A program made the position numbers and the translations under genes. A stretch of 64,000 nt of DNA from an uncultured Myxococcales bacterium (lineage in GTDB: Bacteria; Myxococcota_A; Bradymonadia; UBA7976; UBA1532): the NCBI GenBank assembly GCA_903847385.1, contig CAINDO010000440.1, forward strand, positions 6,129 to 70,128, written 5' to 3'. The notes beneath the pieces are model-generated. The model was not told the origin of the DNA and made no database searches. It saw only the letters and a program-made list of their open reading frames with translations. Shown piece after piece: positions 1,867 to 14,158 of the stretch. Position 1 is the first letter of the stretch, and the number at the start of each line of letters is the position of its first letter.

Positions 1867-3792
1867 ATGAAGACGCGTCTCTCCGCCCTCACCCTGCTCT
1901 CCGCCCTGGGCACCCTGGCCCTGGGCGGCTGCATCAACAACGCCGACAAAGCCTCCACCGACACCGAGGACGCCACGGCCAGCGGCGGCGCCGGCGGTGC
2001 GCCCGCCGAGGGAGACGCCGGCCCCGGCGGCGCCGGCGGCTCCGGTGCGCCTGATCGCGACGCCGCCGTCGAGGCCGACGCGGCGACCGGGGGCACGCTC
2101 ACGCCCGACGCCGCCGTGCCCCCGCCCCCCACCTGCGACCAGGAAGACGCCAACGCCGGCAACGGCGGTCAGGCCACGGCCACGCCGGTGCTCGTCGGCT
2201 CCAGCCGCAGCGACCTGTTCCTGTGCGCCGGCACCGAGGACTGGTACACGCTGACGCTGGACGCCGGCACCTACGTCGTCTTCCAGATCACCGCCGATCC
2301 GGTCGAGACCGACCTGGACCTCTTCCTGACGGACGCCGACGGCAACGTGCTCACCCAGAGCGCCACCGAGACGGGCGCCGAGCAGATCGCCTTCACGGCG
2401 GAGACGACGGGCGCGTACTTCCTGCGGGTCGTCGGCGGCTTCCGCGACGTGGCCGCCCCCTACGGCCTGAGCGTGACCTCGGCCTGCCGCCTGGACAGCG
2501 ACTGCGGCGCCGACCAGATCTGCTCGCTCTTCAGCGGTCAGTGCGAGGACGCGCCCGCCGCGGCCTGCGGCGCCGACGCCGCCGAGGAGAACGACCGCGA
2601 CGCCGCGGCCTTCGCGCTCGACGTGGCCGGTGGCCCCTTCGACGCCGTCATCTGCGGCGCCGATCCCGACTGGTTCAAGGTCACGGTCGCCGACGGCGAG
2701 GACCTGGACGTGCTCGTGAGTTTCCCCGCGGGCGAGGACCTCGACCTCGTCGTGCGCAACCTGAACACCGGCGCCCTGGTGGGCACGGCCGCCGGGGACG
2801 CCAACAGCAACCCCGAGCGTCTGCACCTGTCCCACCTCGCCGCGGGTGACTACGCCCTCGGCGTGCTGTTCTACGAGATGGACGCCGGCGGCACCCGCGA
2901 GGTGTCCTACCGCATCGACGCCGCCACGGCCGCGGGCAGCTGCGCCACGGACGCCGACTGCACCGGCGCCAACGGCCCCATCTGCGACGCCGCGACGGGC
3001 GCGTGCGGCCCCGTGCCGGACGCCGGCCGCGTGGCCATCGGCGGTCAGTGCGGCAACTCCGCCGACTGCGCGGACGAGGGCGCGTTCTGCGCGGCGGCCG
3101 GCCCCGGCGGCGCCGACAACTACTGCACGATCGAGTGCGGCGGCGACGACGCCGAGTGTGCCGCCCTGGGCGACGGCGCCTACTGTCTGCGCAGCATGGG
3201 CGTGCAGGTCTGCACCCGGGCCTGCAGCGCGGACAACCAGTGCAGCGCCACGCGCGAGTGTGTCGACGGCCGCTGCCAGCGCCGCGCGCAGTGCGCCTCG
3301 AACGATGACTGCGACGCCGGCCAGGTCTGCGCGCAGACGCCCTTCGGCGCCTTGGTCTGCCAGGACCTGCCCCCGCCCGCCGACTGCGGCCAGGACGCCA
3401 ACCCGGACGGCACCGTGCGCGTGGACGACGACGCCGAGCACGCCGTGGCCCTCGCGGCCGACGGCGCGCCCCTCGAGGGCCAGCACATCTGTGACGGCGA
3501 CCGCGACTGGTTCCGCGTGACCGTGCCCGCCGAAAGCGCCGCGGACGCCCTGGTGGCCACGCTGTCCTTCCGCGCCGGCGTGGACCTCGACCTCTATGTG
3601 CTCGACGCCGCGGGCAATACGATCGGCGGCGCCGCCAGCGCCGACCAGACGGATGAGATCGCCACGCTGCGATTCCTCCCGGCCGGTGACTACTTCCTGG
3701 TCGTCGACCAGTACGCCAGCGACGCCCTGGCCGACACCGACTACCGCATCGTGGCCGTGCTCCAGGCCAACGAGGACCGCTGCACGGTCTAG
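1867..3792 (+). CDS. Secreted lipoprotein with three PPC (pre-peptidase C-terminal-like) domains and Cys-rich modules; ends at an in-frame TAG
   Basis: MKTRLSALTLLSALGTLALGGC carries a lipobox. PPC-type motifs recur (DWYTLTLDAGTYVVFQITADP..DLDLFL, DWFKVTVADGEDLDVLVSFPAGEDLDLVV, DWFRVTVPAESA..DLDLYV). A GAGGA ribosome-binding site precedes the ATG. Confidence 0.75.
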   Translation: MKTRLSALTLLSALGTLALGGCINNADKASTDTEDATASGGAGGAPAEGDAGPGGAGGSGAPDRDAAVEADAATGGTLTPDAAVPPPPTCDQEDANAGNGGQATATPVLVGSSRSDLFLCAGTEDWYTLTLDAGTYVVFQITADPVETDLDLFLTDADGNVLTQSATETGAEQIAFTAETTGAYFLRVVGGFRDVAAPYGLSVTSACRLDSDCGADQICSLFSGQCEDAPAAACGADAAEENDRDAAAFALDVAGGPFDAVICGADPDWFKVTVADGEDLDVLVSFPAGEDLDLVVRNLNTGALVGTAAGDANSNPERLHLSHLAAGDYALGVLFYEMDAGGTREVSYRIDAATAAGSCATDADCTGANGPICDAATGACGPVPDAGRVAIGGQCGNSADCADEGAFCAAAGPGGADNYCTIECGGDDAECAALGDGAYCLRSMGVQVCTRACSADNQCSATRECVDGRCQRRAQCASNDDCDAGQVCAQTPFGALVCQDLPPPADCGQDANPDGTVRVDDDAEHAVALAADGAPLEGQHICDGDRDWFRVTVPAESAADALVATLSFRAGVDLDLYVLDAAGNTIGGAASADQTDEIATLRFLPAGDYFLVVDQYASDALADTDYRIVAVLQANEDRCTV

Positions 3793-8867: not shown

Positions 8868-11800
8868 TCAGCGCCGTCGGGTCTCCCGTTCGGCCGATGC
8901 GCGGTAGTTCTCGGCCATCATGGTGCAGAGCCTCGCGGACTCTGGCCACTGCGTTCCGAGGCGCCGGGCGCTGTTCTCCAGCATCTCGGCGAGGATTCGC
9001 TCATGGTACGCGGGGTCGTGCGGGTCGATCTCACGAACGCCCTGGCGGTTGAAATGCGCACGTGCGATCGCCCGTCGGAGCCGCTCGGAGTCGTGCCGCT
9101 TCAGAATTTCGCGCGCCACCGGTGGCGGCCACAGGTCGACCTCGCCCAGGTCCGAGGCGAGGTTGCCGAGGATGTGACCGAGGAAGTCGGCACACCCGAC
9201 GGCGTGGCCCGTCGCGCGACACTGGGCGACGAACGCGTCCGCCCAATTGGGGAGCGTCTCGGGCAGGAACTTCAGATTCAGGCCGAACACCACTCTTTGC
9301 CCGATCCGGCCCAGGTTCGACTCGGGTTGGAGTCTCGTTTCCTCGCCGTCGGGCGTGAACGTCTGCCGGACCACGTCGGCGGCGAAGGCGGGGGAGGTCT
9401 CGAGTGCGCGTCGAATGCGCTCGGGAAGTGGCCCAAAGTCATCGCGAAGGGGCAAGAACTTCAGTTCGAGCGCGACGAGTTCTTCGACCTGAGCCCCGGT
9501 CGCCTCGAGCACGTCGAGGCCAAGCGCAACGACGTCCGAAAACCGGATATCGGGCCGGGTGGGCGTCTCCACGGCCGACAGCGCGGCACGCAGGTGCGTC
9601 GCCTGGGCGCGAACACTCGGCAGGCGTTCCGGCCAGTCCGCGGGCAACGATTCGAGAATCTGGCGCGCGCCACCCCACGCGAGCAACCCGCTCAGGAGAA
9701 TCGTTGCGAGATTGGCGTCCTCCGACCATGGATCGAAGGGCGCGGCCTCCCACCAGGCCGCCTGAATCGGCTCGGGACACGTCGCGAGCCAGTGCAAGAC
9801 AGCCTCCTCGGCGGGCAGCTCTCGCAGCAACGGCTGAGCGACTTCGATGGCACCCCGTCGAAGCAGCTCGTCGAGCCGGTGCAGCCGAGCCTCCACGTCG
9901 AGACGCCTGAAGTACCCAGCGCGGAGCCCGCCGGCGACCGGACCGCGGTCGAGGTCCCAGATCTCGCGGGCGACGCAGTCCGACCACTCCGCGTGTGCAG
10001 CGATGGCCCACCCGAGGCGCGCCGCGCTGTACTCATCGAATTCGGTGAGTTCTGCCGCGTGAAAGAGACAGTCCCCACGCCGGAGGGCGGCGTTCACGAC
10101 CTCCACCAGGCTCGCGTCCGCCCGGCGCAACTTCTCCGCCTCGAAGTCTCGGTACGCCGGAAACTCCCGAATCGACATGCCGTCGAGGTGGTCCGGCTGG
10201 GAGCCGAACATCCACGCGATGTCGCCGAGCCGCACCTCGTCCGGCGCCGGCTGGAGTGCGCCGTAGGCTTGCATCAGAGCTTCGACGGCGTCGCCCTTGA
10301 ACGACCACCATGCGTCGCGAAAGGTCTTGGCGTCGGCGAGATGTTTCCGAAGGGCCCCGCGAACTCGGCGTCGACCGGCCGGTTCGAGTGAGCCCTCTCG
10401 CGATGCTCGCCCCAAGGCATCGAGGCATTGTGTCAGCACATCCTGGCCGAGGATGGGAGAGAGCGCATGCACCAGCGAGGGCCAGACACTGAAGTCGCGC
10501 TCGGCCGTCTTCACGAGTCGATGCACGAGCCACTCGAGGTCACTGTCGGTCATCCGCCCTTGGCCCGGCGCACCCTCGGCCGGGGCGTCGTTGCGACCCT
10601 CCATGAACTCCGGTGGGCCCAAGCCCATCCACATCGCGCCCGAGGGCCGTGGGAGAAGGCCGAGCAGAATCGCGGCGAGCGCCCGGGTCGATGCCCCCCG
10701 CTCGTCCGCCGCGTCGAGCGCCCGCCGGCAACACTCGCCGCCGGTCGCGGAGCTTGCCCATCGAGTCCGCAGGATCGCGTGGAGCGAGGACAACGGACTG
10801 TTGCCGAGCCCGCCGTGCGGCCCGTCGTCTGCGTCTGCGAGCATCAACAGTCGATCGACCACACGCACGAACAGTGCCGGTCCCCACGGGAGCCGTTCCG
10901 GTGCCCACGAGAGCCGTTCCAGCGCCCAGAGCAGTGGAAGTCGGTGTCTCTTCAACGCCTCCGGGTCGAGTGCGTCGAGAAATGCCCCCGGCGCGGTCTC
11001 GGCCAGTGTCTCCAGACACGCCGCGGATGGGGCGGCGAGCGCCCGGCGCACGAGGGTGCCGGCGAGCTGTTCCGCGCGCGTCTTGTCACCCTGCGCGGCG
11101 AACGGGGACCAGCGGATCAGGGCAAGGGCCCGGACGAGGGCGTCGGCCTCGCTGCGCTCGATCGGCTCGGCGTTCTCGGCGACGAGCAGCGCTTCGGCGG
11201 CGTCGAGAATGCGGTGCGCGTTCCCGTTCAACCAGTGCCGTTCGGTCTTTCGCCAGGTGTCGACCGGCGTGCGCCAGCCCCACATCGTACCCCGATCTTC
11301 GAGCGCAATCGGTTCGGCATGGGCAAGGGCCTCGGTTGCGTCCACGACCCGCTCGACCTTCGCTCCAGCGAGGCGGCGAAGCACCACGCCGAGCGGCGCA
11401 CCCGATTTCGGAGACGCGCCGAGGACGAGCGCGGGCCAGACCTCGGCCAGGATCTCGCGCCTGGCCCACGACGCCGATGCGCTCAGGAGCCCTCGCAGCG
11501 CCAGAAACCCGTTGCCGGCGGCCCGCGCTGCCCTGTGAATCGCATCTTGTGGCCAGCGCTCGGCCTCCAGCAGGTCGTGCAATCGCGGCGGAGCGAGGAA
11601 CCGCAAGTGGATCACGGCCGGATCATCGGGCGGGCTTTGTGGCACGCTGGCGTCCGGGCGGCTCCATTCGGTGGATCGAATCACGACATGCGGAGCACGT
11701 GCCGGCAACCGCAGGCGGCCCTCGGGCGTGTCGTCGATGAGAATCAGCCGCTCCGGTGACGACTGGGCGGCGTCGAACGCGGTCCTCGTCGAGATGACGA

Positions 11801-12881
11801 GGGTACGATGGCGAAGCATGGCGAGGGAACCCACCGCATGAGCGGCGAACGCGACGCCCTCGTCCCTGTGCGAAGCCTGAACTTCGACCGAGTGAATCGC
11901 CGGTCGCATTACGGCGCCGAGCAGCGCCGCGACTTCAGCGCTTCGGCCCGCGGCGACTGCGGCCAGTGGCAGGCTCAGCGCCCGAGCGTCGTCGAAGACC
12001 GACTGATCTTCGTCGAAGACCGACTGGTCTTGCCATCGCTTTTCGAAGTCGTCCAGCGAAGAGAGACCGTCGTCCGCGAAGGGTGACCCGATCAACTTCG
12101 AGAACCACCGGCGCACGACCGGGGCCGCATCCAGCCAATGCAGGAGCTGCGGCCGGTCGATGACCCGAACAGCCCGGAAGCCGTGCTTTCGACACTGTGC
12201 GCTGGCCCAGTCCGCCGAGGTCGGCGGCGCGGACCCCCAGAGGTGGGGCGTCACGAACACGACGGTCACATCCGCTGGCAAACGCCCTTCCGCGGCGCAC
12301 TTCGTTTGCGCCGCCGCCAGATCCCGGCCCGCCTTGCTCCGTGCATCGGACTGAACGGAGAACTCCCAGAACGACGGACCCACCGGGACGAAGGGTCCGC
12401 CGAGCCCGCAGGTCACCGCCCCATCCCAACCCTTCCGCTCGGCGTCGTCGCGCAGGAGAAAACGCGGTTGGTCGAGGTCGCGCCACGGGACGGTCGCAAG
12501 TATGAGTCGCCAGACCAGCTCGGGCAACTGCCTCCGCGATTCGAGCGTCGCCGCCCAGCGGTCCAGGTCCATCCGGTTCGGGTCCCAGACACCCCCCGCC
12601 AGCGACCCGATGCGGCCGGTCGCGTCGCCCGCGCTCGGGTCCGGGTCGTCGAGGCGAACCAGACTGGCCACGGACCGGCGCAGCCCGATCGCGAGGCGCT
12701 CGAGGTCTGGACCGGTCAGCGAGGTCTGCTCGCCCGAGAGCAGCCGCGAGATCGTCGACTGCGAGAGGCCGATTCGCTGCGCCCAGGCCCGCTGCGAGAG
12801 GTTTTCAGAAGCGAGACGTTCGGCTATGATCCCGCCGACATCTCGAATCACCGAGATTCTCTCACCAGAGCGCCTGGCCAT
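8868..12881 (-). CDS. 1337-aa protein with an N-terminal XRE-family helix-turn-helix and a large uncharacterised helical body; no P-loop found
   Basis: The N-terminus (..NLSQRAWAQRIGLSQSTISRLLSGEQ) is a typical XRE HTH. The long ORF has non-Arg-biased composition. I found no Walker A motif. It sits divergently to an AbiE-like pair. Confidence 0.65.
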   Translation of the reverse strand: MARRSGERISVIRDVGGIIAERLASENLSQRAWAQRIGLSQSTISRLLSGEQTSLTGPDLERLAIGLRRSVASLVRLDDPDPSAGDATGRIGSLAGGVWDPNRMDLDRWAATLESRRQLPELVWRLILATVPWRDLDQPRFLLRDDAERKGWDGAVTCGLGGPFVPVGPSFWEFSVQSDARSKAGRDLAAAQTKCAAEGRLPADVTVVFVTPHLWGSAPPTSADWASAQCRKHGFRAVRVIDRPQLLHWLDAAPVVRRWFSKLIGSPFADDGLSSLDDFEKRWQDQSVFDEDQSVFDDARALSLPLAAVAAGRSAEVAALLGAVMRPAIHSVEVQASHRDEGVAFAAHAVGSLAMLRHRTLVISTRTAFDAAQSSPERLILIDDTPEGRLRLPARAPHVVIRSTEWSRPDASVPQSPPDDPAVIHLRFLAPPRLHDLLEAERWPQDAIHRAARAAGNGFLALRGLLSASASWARREILAEVWPALVLGASPKSGAPLGVVLRRLAGAKVERVVDATEALAHAEPIALEDRGTMWGWRTPVDTWRKTERHWLNGNAHRILDAAEALLVAENAEPIERSEADALVRALALIRWSPFAAQGDKTRAEQLAGTLVRRALAAPSAACLETLAETAPGAFLDALDPEALKRHRLPLLWALERLSWAPERLPWGPALFVRVVDRLLMLADADDGPHGGLGNSPLSSLHAILRTRWASSATGGECCRRALDAADERGASTRALAAILLGLLPRPSGAMWMGLGPPEFMEGRNDAPAEGAPGQGRMTDSDLEWLVHRLVKTAERDFSVWPSLVHALSPILGQDVLTQCLDALGRASREGSLEPAGRRRVRGALRKHLADAKTFRDAWWSFKGDAVEALMQAYGALQPAPDEVRLGDIAWMFGSQPDHLDGMSIREFPAYRDFEAEKLRRADASLVEVVNAALRRGDCLFHAAELTEFDEYSAARLGWAIAAHAEWSDCVAREIWDLDRGPVAGGLRAGYFRRLDVEARLHRLDELLRRGAIEVAQPLLRELPAEEAVLHWLATCPEPIQAAWWEAAPFDPWSEDANLATILLSGLLAWGGARQILESLPADWPERLPSVRAQATHLRAALSAVETPTRPDIRFSDVVALGLDVLEATGAQVEELVALELKFLPLRDDFGPLPERIRRALETSPAFAADVVRQTFTPDGEETRLQPESNLGRIGQRVVFGLNLKFLPETLPNWADAFVAQCRATGHAVGCADFLGHILGNLASDLGEVDLWPPPVAREILKRHDSERLRRAIARAHFNRQGVREIDPHDPAYHERILAEMLENSARRLGTQWPESARLCTMMAENYRASAERETRRR

Positions 12882-12917
12882 GATTCATTCCAGATTCAAT
12901 GCGAATGAATGAATCAT
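12880..12917. promoter_or_regulatory. AT-rich divergent operator: perfect 11-bp inverted repeat ATGATTCATTC / GAATGAATCAT with a 16-bp spacer
   Basis: The arms lie at 12880-12890 and 12907-12917. Local GC is about 30% in a genome of about 70%. Both divergent start codons lie in or next to the arms. Confidence 0.55.
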
Positions 12918-13472
12918 CTCGAATTCACCGCGCGGAGTCAAATCGTGCTGCAGCCCGTGGACCTCGTGGTCGCCCTGAAGCTTTGCTGCCACGCAGACGG
13001 CCAGCCCGTCTCGCGCGCCGAGAGCGCGGCGTCGCTCGGGATCTCGCGCCGCCGCTTCGACGATGCGGTGACGCGCCTGGTGGCGTCCCGCCTGGCCAGC
13101 GCCGAGAGCCTTCGGCCGCGCGCGCACTCGCTGATGGAGTTCCTCTGCGCGGGTGTCCCCTATTGGCTCCCCGCCGAGGTCGGTGCGATCGCTCGGGGTA
13201 TGCCCGCCGCCACATCCGGTCCGGGGCTCGAGGGACTCGGGCCGATTCAACTCGCCGAAGTGGGTGAATGGGTCTGGCCCGGCGCCCCGGCCCCGTTCGA
13301 TCGGCATGTCGGCAAGGCGCTCCAACCCATCGACCCCATCGTGCCGACGGCCGCGGCGCGCGATCAGCGGCTCTACGAACTTCTGAGCCTGCTCGACACC
13401 CTGCGGGTCGGTCATGTCCGTGAGCGCGACGCCGCGCGCGCCGGCCTGTCGCGACGCCTGGGGCTGACGTGA
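12909..13472 (+). CDS. HTH-containing small protein, AbiEi-like putative antitoxin or regulator
   Basis: A winged-HTH-like segment (VSRAESAASLGISRRRFDDAVTRLVASRL). Its stop overlaps the downstream GTG start as GTGA. Confidence 0.5.
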   Translation: MNHLEFTARSQIVLQPVDLVVALKLCCHADGQPVSRAESAASLGISRRRFDDAVTRLVASRLASAESLRPRAHSLMEFLCAGVPYWLPAEVGAIARGMPAATSGPGLEGLGPIQLAEVGEWVWPGAPAPFDRHVGKALQPIDPIVPTAAARDQRLYELLSLLDTLRVGHVRERDAARAGLSRRLGLT

Positions 13473-14158
13473 GTCGCGTGCCGATCAGCCGCGCGGTCTT
13501 CGCGACTGTCGCACGAGTGCTCCAGGCAGGCGGTGTGCGGGTCGTCTTCGTCGGCGGCGCGACCGTCCCACTGCGGGTCGATCTCGTCGCCGGCAACGCT
13601 CGGGTGACCGACGACATCGATTGCGTGGTCGATGCGGTGAGCTACGCCGAGTATGCCGCGCTGCTGGACCGGCTCCGTGCCCTGGGCTTCAGCGACGCCC
13701 CGGAAGAGGGCGTCACCTGCCGGATGCGTCTGGGCAGTGTCCTGATGGACTTCATGCCCCGCGCGAACCTCCCGCTGGCGCCGAGCAGTCCGTTCTTCGA
13801 GCGCATCTGGATGGACCCCGACAGCCTCGAGGTCGAGCCGGGCTTCACGATTCCCGTGGCCCGCATCGGCGATCTGTTCGCGACGAAGGTCGAGGCATTT
13901 CTGGACCGCGGTGCTGCCGATCCTTACGCGAGCAAGGACCTGGAAGACCTCGTGACGCTCCTGGACGGGAGAGCCGGCCTCCTCGACGAACTCGACGCAG
14001 CGAGGGCAGAGGTTCGAGTCGCCGCCGCGCGCTGGGCCGCCTGGATGAGCGCGCGCAGGGACGGTGAGGATCTCGTCGCGGCGTGGTTCTGGGGGAGAGA
14101 CGCAGAACGCCGCTCCGCAACGGTCTGGGCGTTGGTCAAACGGCTCGCCGCGCGCTGA
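13469..14158 (+). CDS. Nucleotidyltransferase-fold protein, AbiEii/DUF1814-like putative toxin
   Basis: N-terminal VVFVGGATVPLRV..ARVTDDIDCVVD matches the Gly-rich loop plus R-x-T-x-D-[IL]-D nucleotidyltransferase signature of AbiEii-family toxins, as I recall it. About 229 aa. The GTG start overlaps the upstream stop. Confidence 0.5.
   Translation: MSRVPISRAVFATVARVLQAGGVRVVFVGGATVPLRVDLVAGNARVTDDIDCVVDAVSYAEYAALLDRLRALGFSDAPEEGVTCRMRLGSVLMDFMPRANLPLAPSSPFFERIWMDPDSLEVEPGFTIPVARIGDLFATKVEAFLDRGAADPYASKDLEDLVTLLDGRAGLLDELDAARAEVRVAAARWAAWMSARRDGEDLVAAWFWGRDAERRSATVWALVKRLAAR

Follow-up and report, generated by a model that had tools for sequence, protein, structure and literature searches.

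A probable autoregulatory operator at an AT-rich inverted repeat between a PDC-M21-type, AbiE-like gene pair and a divergent giant XRE gene

A perfect inverted repeat lies between two divergent genes in a 64,000-nt stretch of DNA from an uncultured Myxococcales bacterium (contig CAINDO010000440.1; this whole stretch is called the window below), which raises the question of what it is for and which protein binds it. On one side is a gene for a 1337-residue protein with an N-terminal helix-turn-helix (HTH) of the XRE type, the giant gene; on the other side is a pair of genes, A and B, for a winged-helix protein and a nucleotidyltransferase. A preliminary description of the DNA had taken the repeat for the autoregulatory operator of an HTH protein and had named both the giant XRE protein and the AbiEi-like protein as candidate binders. 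The comparative evidence (conservation of the arms, palindromes throughout the A family) supports such an operator and points to A, rather than to the giant protein, as the preferred binder. We consider it fairly probable that the repeat is the autoregulatory operator of the A/B operon, bound by its AbiEi-like winged-helix A protein. We assigned it to A because the arms are invariant while A falls to 60% and the giant protein to 45% identity, and because the same motif (in a plasmid-like contig, L017) and other upstream palindromes accompany A/B pairs that have no giant gene. The features concerned are the following.

12880-12890, no strand: left arm, ATGATTCATTC (repeat finder); 12880-12881 are shared with the start codon of the giant gene
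12891-12906, no strand: spacer of 16 nt, which differs between loci, with a third ATTC unit at 12894-12897
12907-12917, no strand: right arm, GAATGAATCAT (repeat finder), with the core GAATGAAT at 12907-12914
8868-12881, minus strand: giant gene, 1337 aa, N-terminal XRE-type HTH; its ATG abuts the left arm, and it stands beside an A/B pair in the clade of the window only
12909-12911, plus strand: ATG in the right arm, probably not a start codon and a by-product of the GAATGAAT motif (starts of relatives, stop codon in L005, listing of a 175-aa form)
12934-12937, plus strand: ribosome-binding site GGAG, 7 nt ahead of GTG 12945
12945-13472, plus strand: A gene, 175-aa winged-helix protein (PDC-M21A), putative antitoxin/repressor and proposed binder of the repeat (PADLOC profile, fold model, relatives)
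13469-14158, plus strand: B gene, AbiEii/DUF1814-type nucleotidyltransferase (PDC-M21B), GTG start (Pfam AbiEii, PADLOC profile)

The inverted repeat and the gene starts around it

Read from the sequence, positions 12879-12918 are C-ATGATTCATTC-cagattcaatgcgaat-GAATGAATCAT-C. The repeat finder returned arms of 11 nt each, 100% complementary, 16 nt between them and with their centres 27 bp apart, in agreement with the perfect 11-bp repeat with an N16 spacer first described. The region had also been called AT-rich (about 30% GC against 70%), and a count by hand gave 12 G or C among the 38 bases of 12880-12917 (32%), compared with 70-78% in 100-nt windows around the repeat. When the best inverted repeat was scored in every 80-nt window of the 64-kb sequence, an equally good one was found in about 5 of 3186 other windows (p ~0.0016). 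A search for further copies of the arm, which the preliminary description had proposed, gave no other exact one in the 64-kb window, and matches with two mismatches were at chance level. We rejected a dispersed repeat or the end of a mobile element, because the window holds no second copy and the repeat is fixed in position among all relatives. No tRNA genes were found in the window.

The start codon of the giant gene (12879-12881) overlaps the left arm by 2 nt, as had been noted. This ATG is the first possible start, because there is an in-frame TGA two codons upstream. The plus-strand gene had been started at ATG 12909, inside the right arm and preceded by an in-frame TGA at 12906-12908, with the caveat that one of the two annotated starts might be wrong. 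Public sources disagree on this point: JGI lists a protein of 187 aa from the in-arm ATG, while the 175-aa form of the same 42-kb contig (P0129; NCBI, Logan) starts from GTG/TTG. We found that A very probably starts at GTG 12945, as judged from its relatives, from the stop codon in L005 and from the GGAG, which is kept in 6 loci. P0003 (77% identity) and P0004 (60%) begin at the residue that matches V13 of the 187-aa form. In P0002 (91% identity), residues 3-8 are unrelated (IGAHVV vs HLEFTA) and the remainder is nearly identical; more generally, conservation at the protein level does not extend to the 12 extra codons (HLEFTA, IGAHVV, HRHTLPG). In L005, the in-arm ATG cannot be a start, as the frame is closed by a TGA three codons before the GTG. 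Lengths in the A family are mostly 168-192 aa among the best 120 of 716 relatives found by a profile search, and the homologs inspected start with ML[RQK]P[VQ]D or M-x-LKPQD. The presence of GGAG before GTG 12945 also speaks against a leaderless plus transcript. Five of the six clade loci aligned below keep the in-arm ATG in frame and may use it occasionally.

The gene start is thus corrected from 187 to 175 aa. With A starting at GTG 12945, the noncoding gap is 12882-12944, i.e. 63 bp and not the 27 bp given before, and the earlier idea that the repeat embeds both start codons is not supported: of the two, only the minus-strand ATG overlaps it.

Conservation of the arms and palindromes upstream of A homologs

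DNA around the clade proteins P0001-P0004 was fetched as loci L001-L008, in all of which the giant gene is divergent from the A/B pair. In an alignment of the DNA of six loci, 12879-12890 and 12907-12914 were invariant, while this was the case for 1 of 16 columns in the spacer and 2 of 19 in the following stretch (12915-12933); synonymous sites in the first codons of the giant gene varied. The arms were unchanged even in L005, with an A protein of 60% identity and a giant protein of 45%; in this locus, they are lengthened to 13 bp and the spacer is 10 nt. The arm sequence itself is, by this comparison, under strong purifying selection. We also observed that a near-exact direct repeat, CATCTCGAAT(T)CACC, brackets the inverted repeat (12838-12852 and 12914-12929), with one copy within the first codons of the giant gene and the other directly after the right arm. 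It is found in the window and in L006 (with one more mismatch in the coding copy) and not in L001, L002, or L005, and is probably due to chance or to a recent event.

Further evidence for a link with the A/B pair was obtained by scanning metagenome contigs, at the DNA level alone, with the query ATGATTCATTC-N16-GAATGAAT. The scan gave 27 loci, mostly chance matches in AT-rich DNA. L017, however, has an A homolog (31% identity) with a B homolog behind it, and ATTCATTC-N16-GAATGAATCAT stands 16 nt upstream of the ATG of this A homolog. This contig is plasmid-like (52% GC, RepA_C and ParA genes) and has no giant gene. The third ATTC unit of the window (12894-12897), which is retained in four of the six clade loci, is also present in L017, unpaired, at +11.

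L017 has a second, different perfect palindrome (TGTAATTACA, 3494-3503), also seen in L054-L061, directly upstream of a divergent parA; this is presumably the partition operon's own operator. Twelve Lake Tanganyika contigs sharing ATGATTCATTCCTCGCTGATAATGCGAGAATGAATCAC were rejected as evidence, because the motif lies there at the start of an insertion sequence (IS)-type transposase gene and is unrelated to the A/B pair (L011, at 1301-1335, L012, L015, L018-L020, L022, L023, L027, L030, L031, and L033). ATGATTCATTCCTCGCTGATAATGCGAGAATGAATCAC has the arm sequence of the window and overlaps the start codon of a 363-aa transposase-like gene (IS5/IS1182-like by sequence reading), and several of these contigs stop exactly 47 nt past the motif, which is what the edge of a multi-copy insertion sequence would produce.

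We then extended the comparison to 20 other distinct A/B loci from seven phyla: 14 genomes, one viral contig, L062 (metagenome) and four plasmids of cultured bacteria that retain B. The genome loci came from a protein-pattern scan with one genome per species and belong to four phyla (Acidobacteriota, Desulfarculaceae, Melainabacteria/Obscuribacterales, and Solirubrobacterales); the plasmids added were from Deinococcus, Bradyrhizobium, Novosphingobium, Legionella, Hymenobacter, and Picosynechococcus. No homolog of the giant protein was detectable in the 15 genome and viral loci, and in L062 and the plasmid loci, the gene calls showed nothing of giant size next to A. In most of the 20 loci, a palindrome precedes the A start by 5-30 nt. 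Testing the upstream 80 nt against all other 80-nt windows of the same locus gave a Fisher's combined p of 1.2e-14 over 14 representative loci. Examples are given below, with a stroke between the halves where no base is written between them.

ATTCGCAATTCG/CGAATTGCGAAT
ATTCTATATTCGCGA-T-TCGCGAATATAGAAT
ATTCAAAATTCG/CGAATTTTGAAT
GTTCATTATTC-TT-GAATAATGAAC
GTCCTCAGTCCT/AGGACAGAGGAC
GTACTATGTATC/GATACATGGTAC
TTCATTGTTCA/TGAACACTGAA

In L041 and L048, two metagenome-assembled genomes of Melainabacteria/Obscuribacterales, the frame of the A homolog breaks after 27-40 codons, the cause being either a frameshift or a fault of assembly. L041 retains the palindrome TTCATTGTTCA/TGAACACTGAA unchanged, while in L048 it has been eroded in part. 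In L063 (plasmid pAQ6 of Picosynechococcus sp. PCC 7002, 92745-93254), the A homolog has an upstream ATTCGGAATTTGCGAATATAGAAT element and is followed by a 159-nt open reading frame only, its nucleotidyltransferase partner having seemingly been lost or decayed. On either side of this locus are further toxin-antitoxin pairs, one of the nucleotidyltransferase/HEPN kind and one Phd/VapC.

The palindromes suggest a common grammar, in which an 11-bp half-site would consist of a 4-mer, three variable bases and another 4-mer, two such half-sites being inverted. The arms of the window are exactly 11 bp, matching the length of the half-site. Between half-sites, most loci have a spacer of 0-2 bp; it reaches 7-9 bp in L039 and L043, and 10 or 16 bp in L017 and the clade of the window. 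When the A proteins were aligned beside their operators, the 4-mer was found to change with the predicted recognition helix.

helix SxSEVH: operator unit ATTC/GAAT
helix SK[ST]E[IV]: operator unit GTCC/GGAC
helix AEVN: operator unit GTTC/GAAC
helix SASMQRS: operator unit GTAC/GTAT

These data bear directly on the idea that the giant XRE protein alone uses the repeat as its operator, which would lie upstream of A and B only incidentally. The geometry would fit (a start codon at an arm, a protein with an XRE HTH), and L069, a locus with a distant giant homolog described below, offers an analogue. The motif in L017 would however have to be a coincidence, the palindromes upstream of giant-less A homologs would be left unaccounted for, and the co-variation is with a helix of the A protein. 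We regard this explanation as extremely improbable.

The A/B pair and related systems

A matched the PADLOC candidate profile PDC-M21A (E 3.7e-25, profile positions 58-202 of 205) and B matched PDC-M21B (E 4.6e-41, positions 13-227 of 234), so that adjacent genes match both profiles of this two-gene system. B also scored above the Pfam threshold for AbiEii (PF08843; 38.2 bits vs a cut-off of 22.5, E 2e-9) and contains a nucleotidyltransferase-like motif, GG...DDID, as read from the sequence, while the AbiEii models of PADLOC match it weakly. The gene order is A then B in every locus that has both. In the window, the stop codon of A (TGA) and the start codon of B (GTG) overlap as GTGA (13469-13472); to judge from the gene layout, A and B are translationally coupled.

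The A family comprises at least 716 proteins (profile search), occurs on 107 plasmids in PLSDB and has no Pfam model. The plus-strand open reading frame (187 aa from ATG 12909) had sub-threshold Pfam matches alone, to HTH_29 and AbiEi_4. Members of the family weakly match AsnC, MarR, and IclR HTH models, and PDB sequence and Pfam searches gave a likewise weak winged-helix signal. An AlphaFold2 model of the 175-aa protein, made with a 37-sequence alignment, had a predicted local distance difference test score (pLDDT) of 86 and a predicted template-modelling score (pTM) of 0.86. It has helices at residues 4-14, 24-31, and 35-47, followed by a wing (short beta bridges), with block-mean pLDDT values of 88-97 in the first 70 residues, i.e. 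the N-terminal three-helix bundle and beta wing that define a winged helix. The C-terminal part of the model is beta-rich and helical. Foldseek comparison with the PDB gave matches to the N-terminal part only (Rrf2/NsrR, DtxR-type, MarR, and IclR winged helices), and neither AbiEi nor Rv2827c turned up among the structures matched by Foldseek or by the PDB sequence search. Membership of A in the AbiEi family was thus not supported by Pfam, the PDB sequence search or Foldseek.

We file the locus as a PDC-M21-type, AbiE-like module and not as AbiE, because B scores as an AbiEii-type toxin and A does not score as AbiEi. PDC-M21, whose profiles both proteins match, is a bioinformatic candidate system only and does not include the giant XRE gene; our literature search found no paper naming it, and no operator, function or regulation described for it. 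In AbiE of Streptococcus agalactiae and in Rv2827c-Rv2826c, as in the window, a winged-helix gene comes first and a DUF1814/AbiEii nucleotidyltransferase gene second, the two genes overlap, and inverted repeats lie at the promoter or transcription start (the promoter of the window being a predicted one). AbiEi of S. agalactiae binds as monomers, cooperatively, to two 23-bp inverted repeats 3 bp apart, while Rv2827c of Mycobacterium tuberculosis binds repeats with a 13-bp gap. The repeats of either system overlap the transcription start, and the operon is repressed when they are occupied (PMC7319586). The gap between arms is therefore variable in these systems too (3 or 13 bp), and the centres of the AbiE repeats, as taken from the published figures (PMC7319586), are 26 bp apart, compared with 27 bp in the window. 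Unlike AbiE, the first protein of the window (175 aa) is no recognisable AbiEi and differs in its C-terminal domain, the arms are 11 bp rather than 23 bp, and there is a divergent 1337-aa XRE gene whose start codon the operator overlaps.

A further likeness is with MenAT (MenA/MenT) of M. tuberculosis, which, as far as its description goes, also combines a DUF1814-type nucleotidyltransferase with an upstream partner of variable type. XRE/Cro-CI switches resemble the window in having an AT-rich dyad between divergent genes, one of them with an XRE HTH, and possibly in having overlapping face-to-face promoters. They differ in that the dyad of the window is tied to a winged-helix protein by comparative evidence, and there is no sign of two alternative states.

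Toxin-antitoxin and abortive-infection operons are well known to regulate themselves through promoter inverted repeats, and the element itself is no surprise: most likely, it is a regulatory element of an ordinary kind in an uncharacterised family, namely the operator by which a toxin-antitoxin or defence operon regulates itself. The comparison assigns a likely DNA target to the A family, and the operator grammar could serve to predict sites and specificity determinants across it. What is peculiar to the window operator is its overlap with the start codon of a conserved divergent giant XRE gene, which flags a conserved physical link between the operator and an XRE-fused giant protein.

Candidate promoters, proposed mode of action and the giant gene

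We propose that A represses its own operon, as AbiEi and Rv2827c do through their inverted repeats. Two copies of the A protein would occupy the two 11-bp arms and would cover the -10 and transcription-start region of the A/B promoter. In most relatives, the left edge of the operator has a -10-like hexamer close by, between -7 and +4 of it, which matches at 4 or more of 6 positions and has A at position 2 and T at position 6; in L053 it is a perfect TATAAT. As to the giant gene, the overlap of its start codon with the left arm implies that its promoter must lie in or beyond the repeat, so that the same occupancy would probably repress the giant gene as well. A consensus scan gave a candidate with 9 of 12 consensus matches (0 in 50 shuffles), the -10 element of which overlaps the right arm. 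The predicted elements are the following.

12879-12884, plus strand: candidate A/B -10 hexamer CATGAT, by analogy with relatives; transcription would start near 12891
12913-12941, minus strand: candidate giant promoter from the consensus scan, with -35 TTGACT (12941-12936), a 17-nt gap and -10 GATGAT (12918-12913); transcription would start near 12906

If both promoters are right, they would point towards each other from either side of the spacer, and both would be shut off by a repressor sitting on the two arms; such a face-to-face arrangement may be reasonable.

At its outer end, each arm resembles a -10 hexamer (CATGAT, plus strand; GATGAT, minus strand), and the region is AT-rich in a 70% GC genome, both of which would suit a mere pair of AT-rich promoter elements, or a site for a global regulator of the host, with no dedicated local repressor. 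Dyad symmetry is however unnecessary for a promoter, and a palindrome that is clade-specific and tracks the A helix in hosts from seven phyla is not what is expected of a host factor or a generic promoter, which makes this account highly improbable. An RNA hairpin in one or both 5' untranslated regions, which could for instance mask the giant start codon and a weak ribosome-binding site or stabilise the A/B mRNA, is in our view very unlikely. Either strand can form a hairpin of 11 bp plus 4 bp (-13.1 to -13.7 kcal/mol), and in the minus transcript, the 3' arm contains the AU of the AUG. The z-scores against shuffled sequences were however just -1.6 to -1.8, with no signal in a longer context, and there was no relevant Rfam match at E <= 1 in 12600-13200. 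Furthermore, the arms are invariant in sequence instead of co-varying, most palindromes of the relatives are gap-free, as is typical of dimeric protein sites, and with the favoured promoters, neither transcript would hold both arms.

Several observations weigh against an operator of A as we propose it. A scored 13.2-13.5 bits against Pfam AbiEi_4, below the cut-off of 25, and one of 37 family members matches this model; winged-helix structures match its model weakly (Foldseek E 0.1-1). A distance of 16 bp separates the arms, compared with 0-2 bp in most relatives, which places the half-sites about 2.5 helical turns apart. The helix of the window protein (RRRFDDAVTRL) differs from that of L017 (SSEVHASFKRA) despite their common motif, which a simple helix-to-base code would not predict. 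The proposed promoter hexamers are weak consensus matches in AT-rich DNA. Finally, the HTH of the giant protein and that of A are both present and equally well conserved in the six clade loci, and the giant protein is a possible second binder.

This last point leads to a shared or competitive operator, in which A and the giant XRE HTH would both bind in or beside the repeat, the 63-bp gap acting as a two-repressor switch with face-to-face promoters. The giant start codon abuts the left arm in all six loci, the HTH of the giant protein is highly conserved, and the arms and the region of the ribosome-binding site are the only conserved noncoding elements. The giant gene has a sigma-70-like candidate promoter that reaches into the right arm, and the HTH-bearing giant homolog of L069 has an inverted repeat at its own start codon. 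On the other hand, the identical motif stands in L017 without a giant gene, and the loci of distant giant homologs (L050, L051, L052, and L069) are without the motif, two of these homologs being also without an HTH. A centre-to-centre spacing of 27 bp is, moreover, atypical for a simple XRE dimer. We hold a shared operator to be unlikely. It is likewise quite unlikely that the three genes form one module, with the repeat as the shared control point of A, B and the giant gene, a -10 element in each arm of two face-to-face promoters, and expression set by A, possibly in competition with the giant XRE HTH. If true, an AbiE-like toxin-antitoxin pair would be coupled to a large sensor-type alpha-solenoid protein.

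The sole clear domain of the giant protein is its XRE-type HTH, at about residues 20-72 (HTH_31, 31 bits; HTH_3, 29.9 bits; both above threshold). The family is small, with proteins of 1250-1450 aa in which the N-terminal XRE HTH is not always present (P0127 and P0123 lack it). The distant homologs (P0123-P0128) have no A/B neighbours and no window motif. An AlphaFold2 model of residues 141-1337, based on nine sequences, had a pLDDT of 75 and a pTM of 0.42, and consists of N-terminal alpha/beta domains followed by a long alpha-solenoid. Its top Foldseek match in the PDB was Avs4 bound to phage portal (E 9e-5, with a TM score of only 0.15-0.17), followed by generic HEAT-repeat proteins. A distant likeness of the predicted fold to Avs4 may be taken as a lead only.

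Two of the distant loci showed other features of the giant family. In L052, the giant homolog adjoins SMODS, Cap17-like, and QueC genes, i.e. a CBASS-like defence neighbourhood. In L069, where it adjoins a resolvase gene and bears an HTH without an A/B pair, we observed an inverted repeat of its own at 2888-2923 (GTCATAGGTTAAATATG / CATATTTTATATATGAC, 17-nt arms, 82% complementary), which covers the ATG of the giant homolog, a geometry analogous to that of the window with a different sequence.

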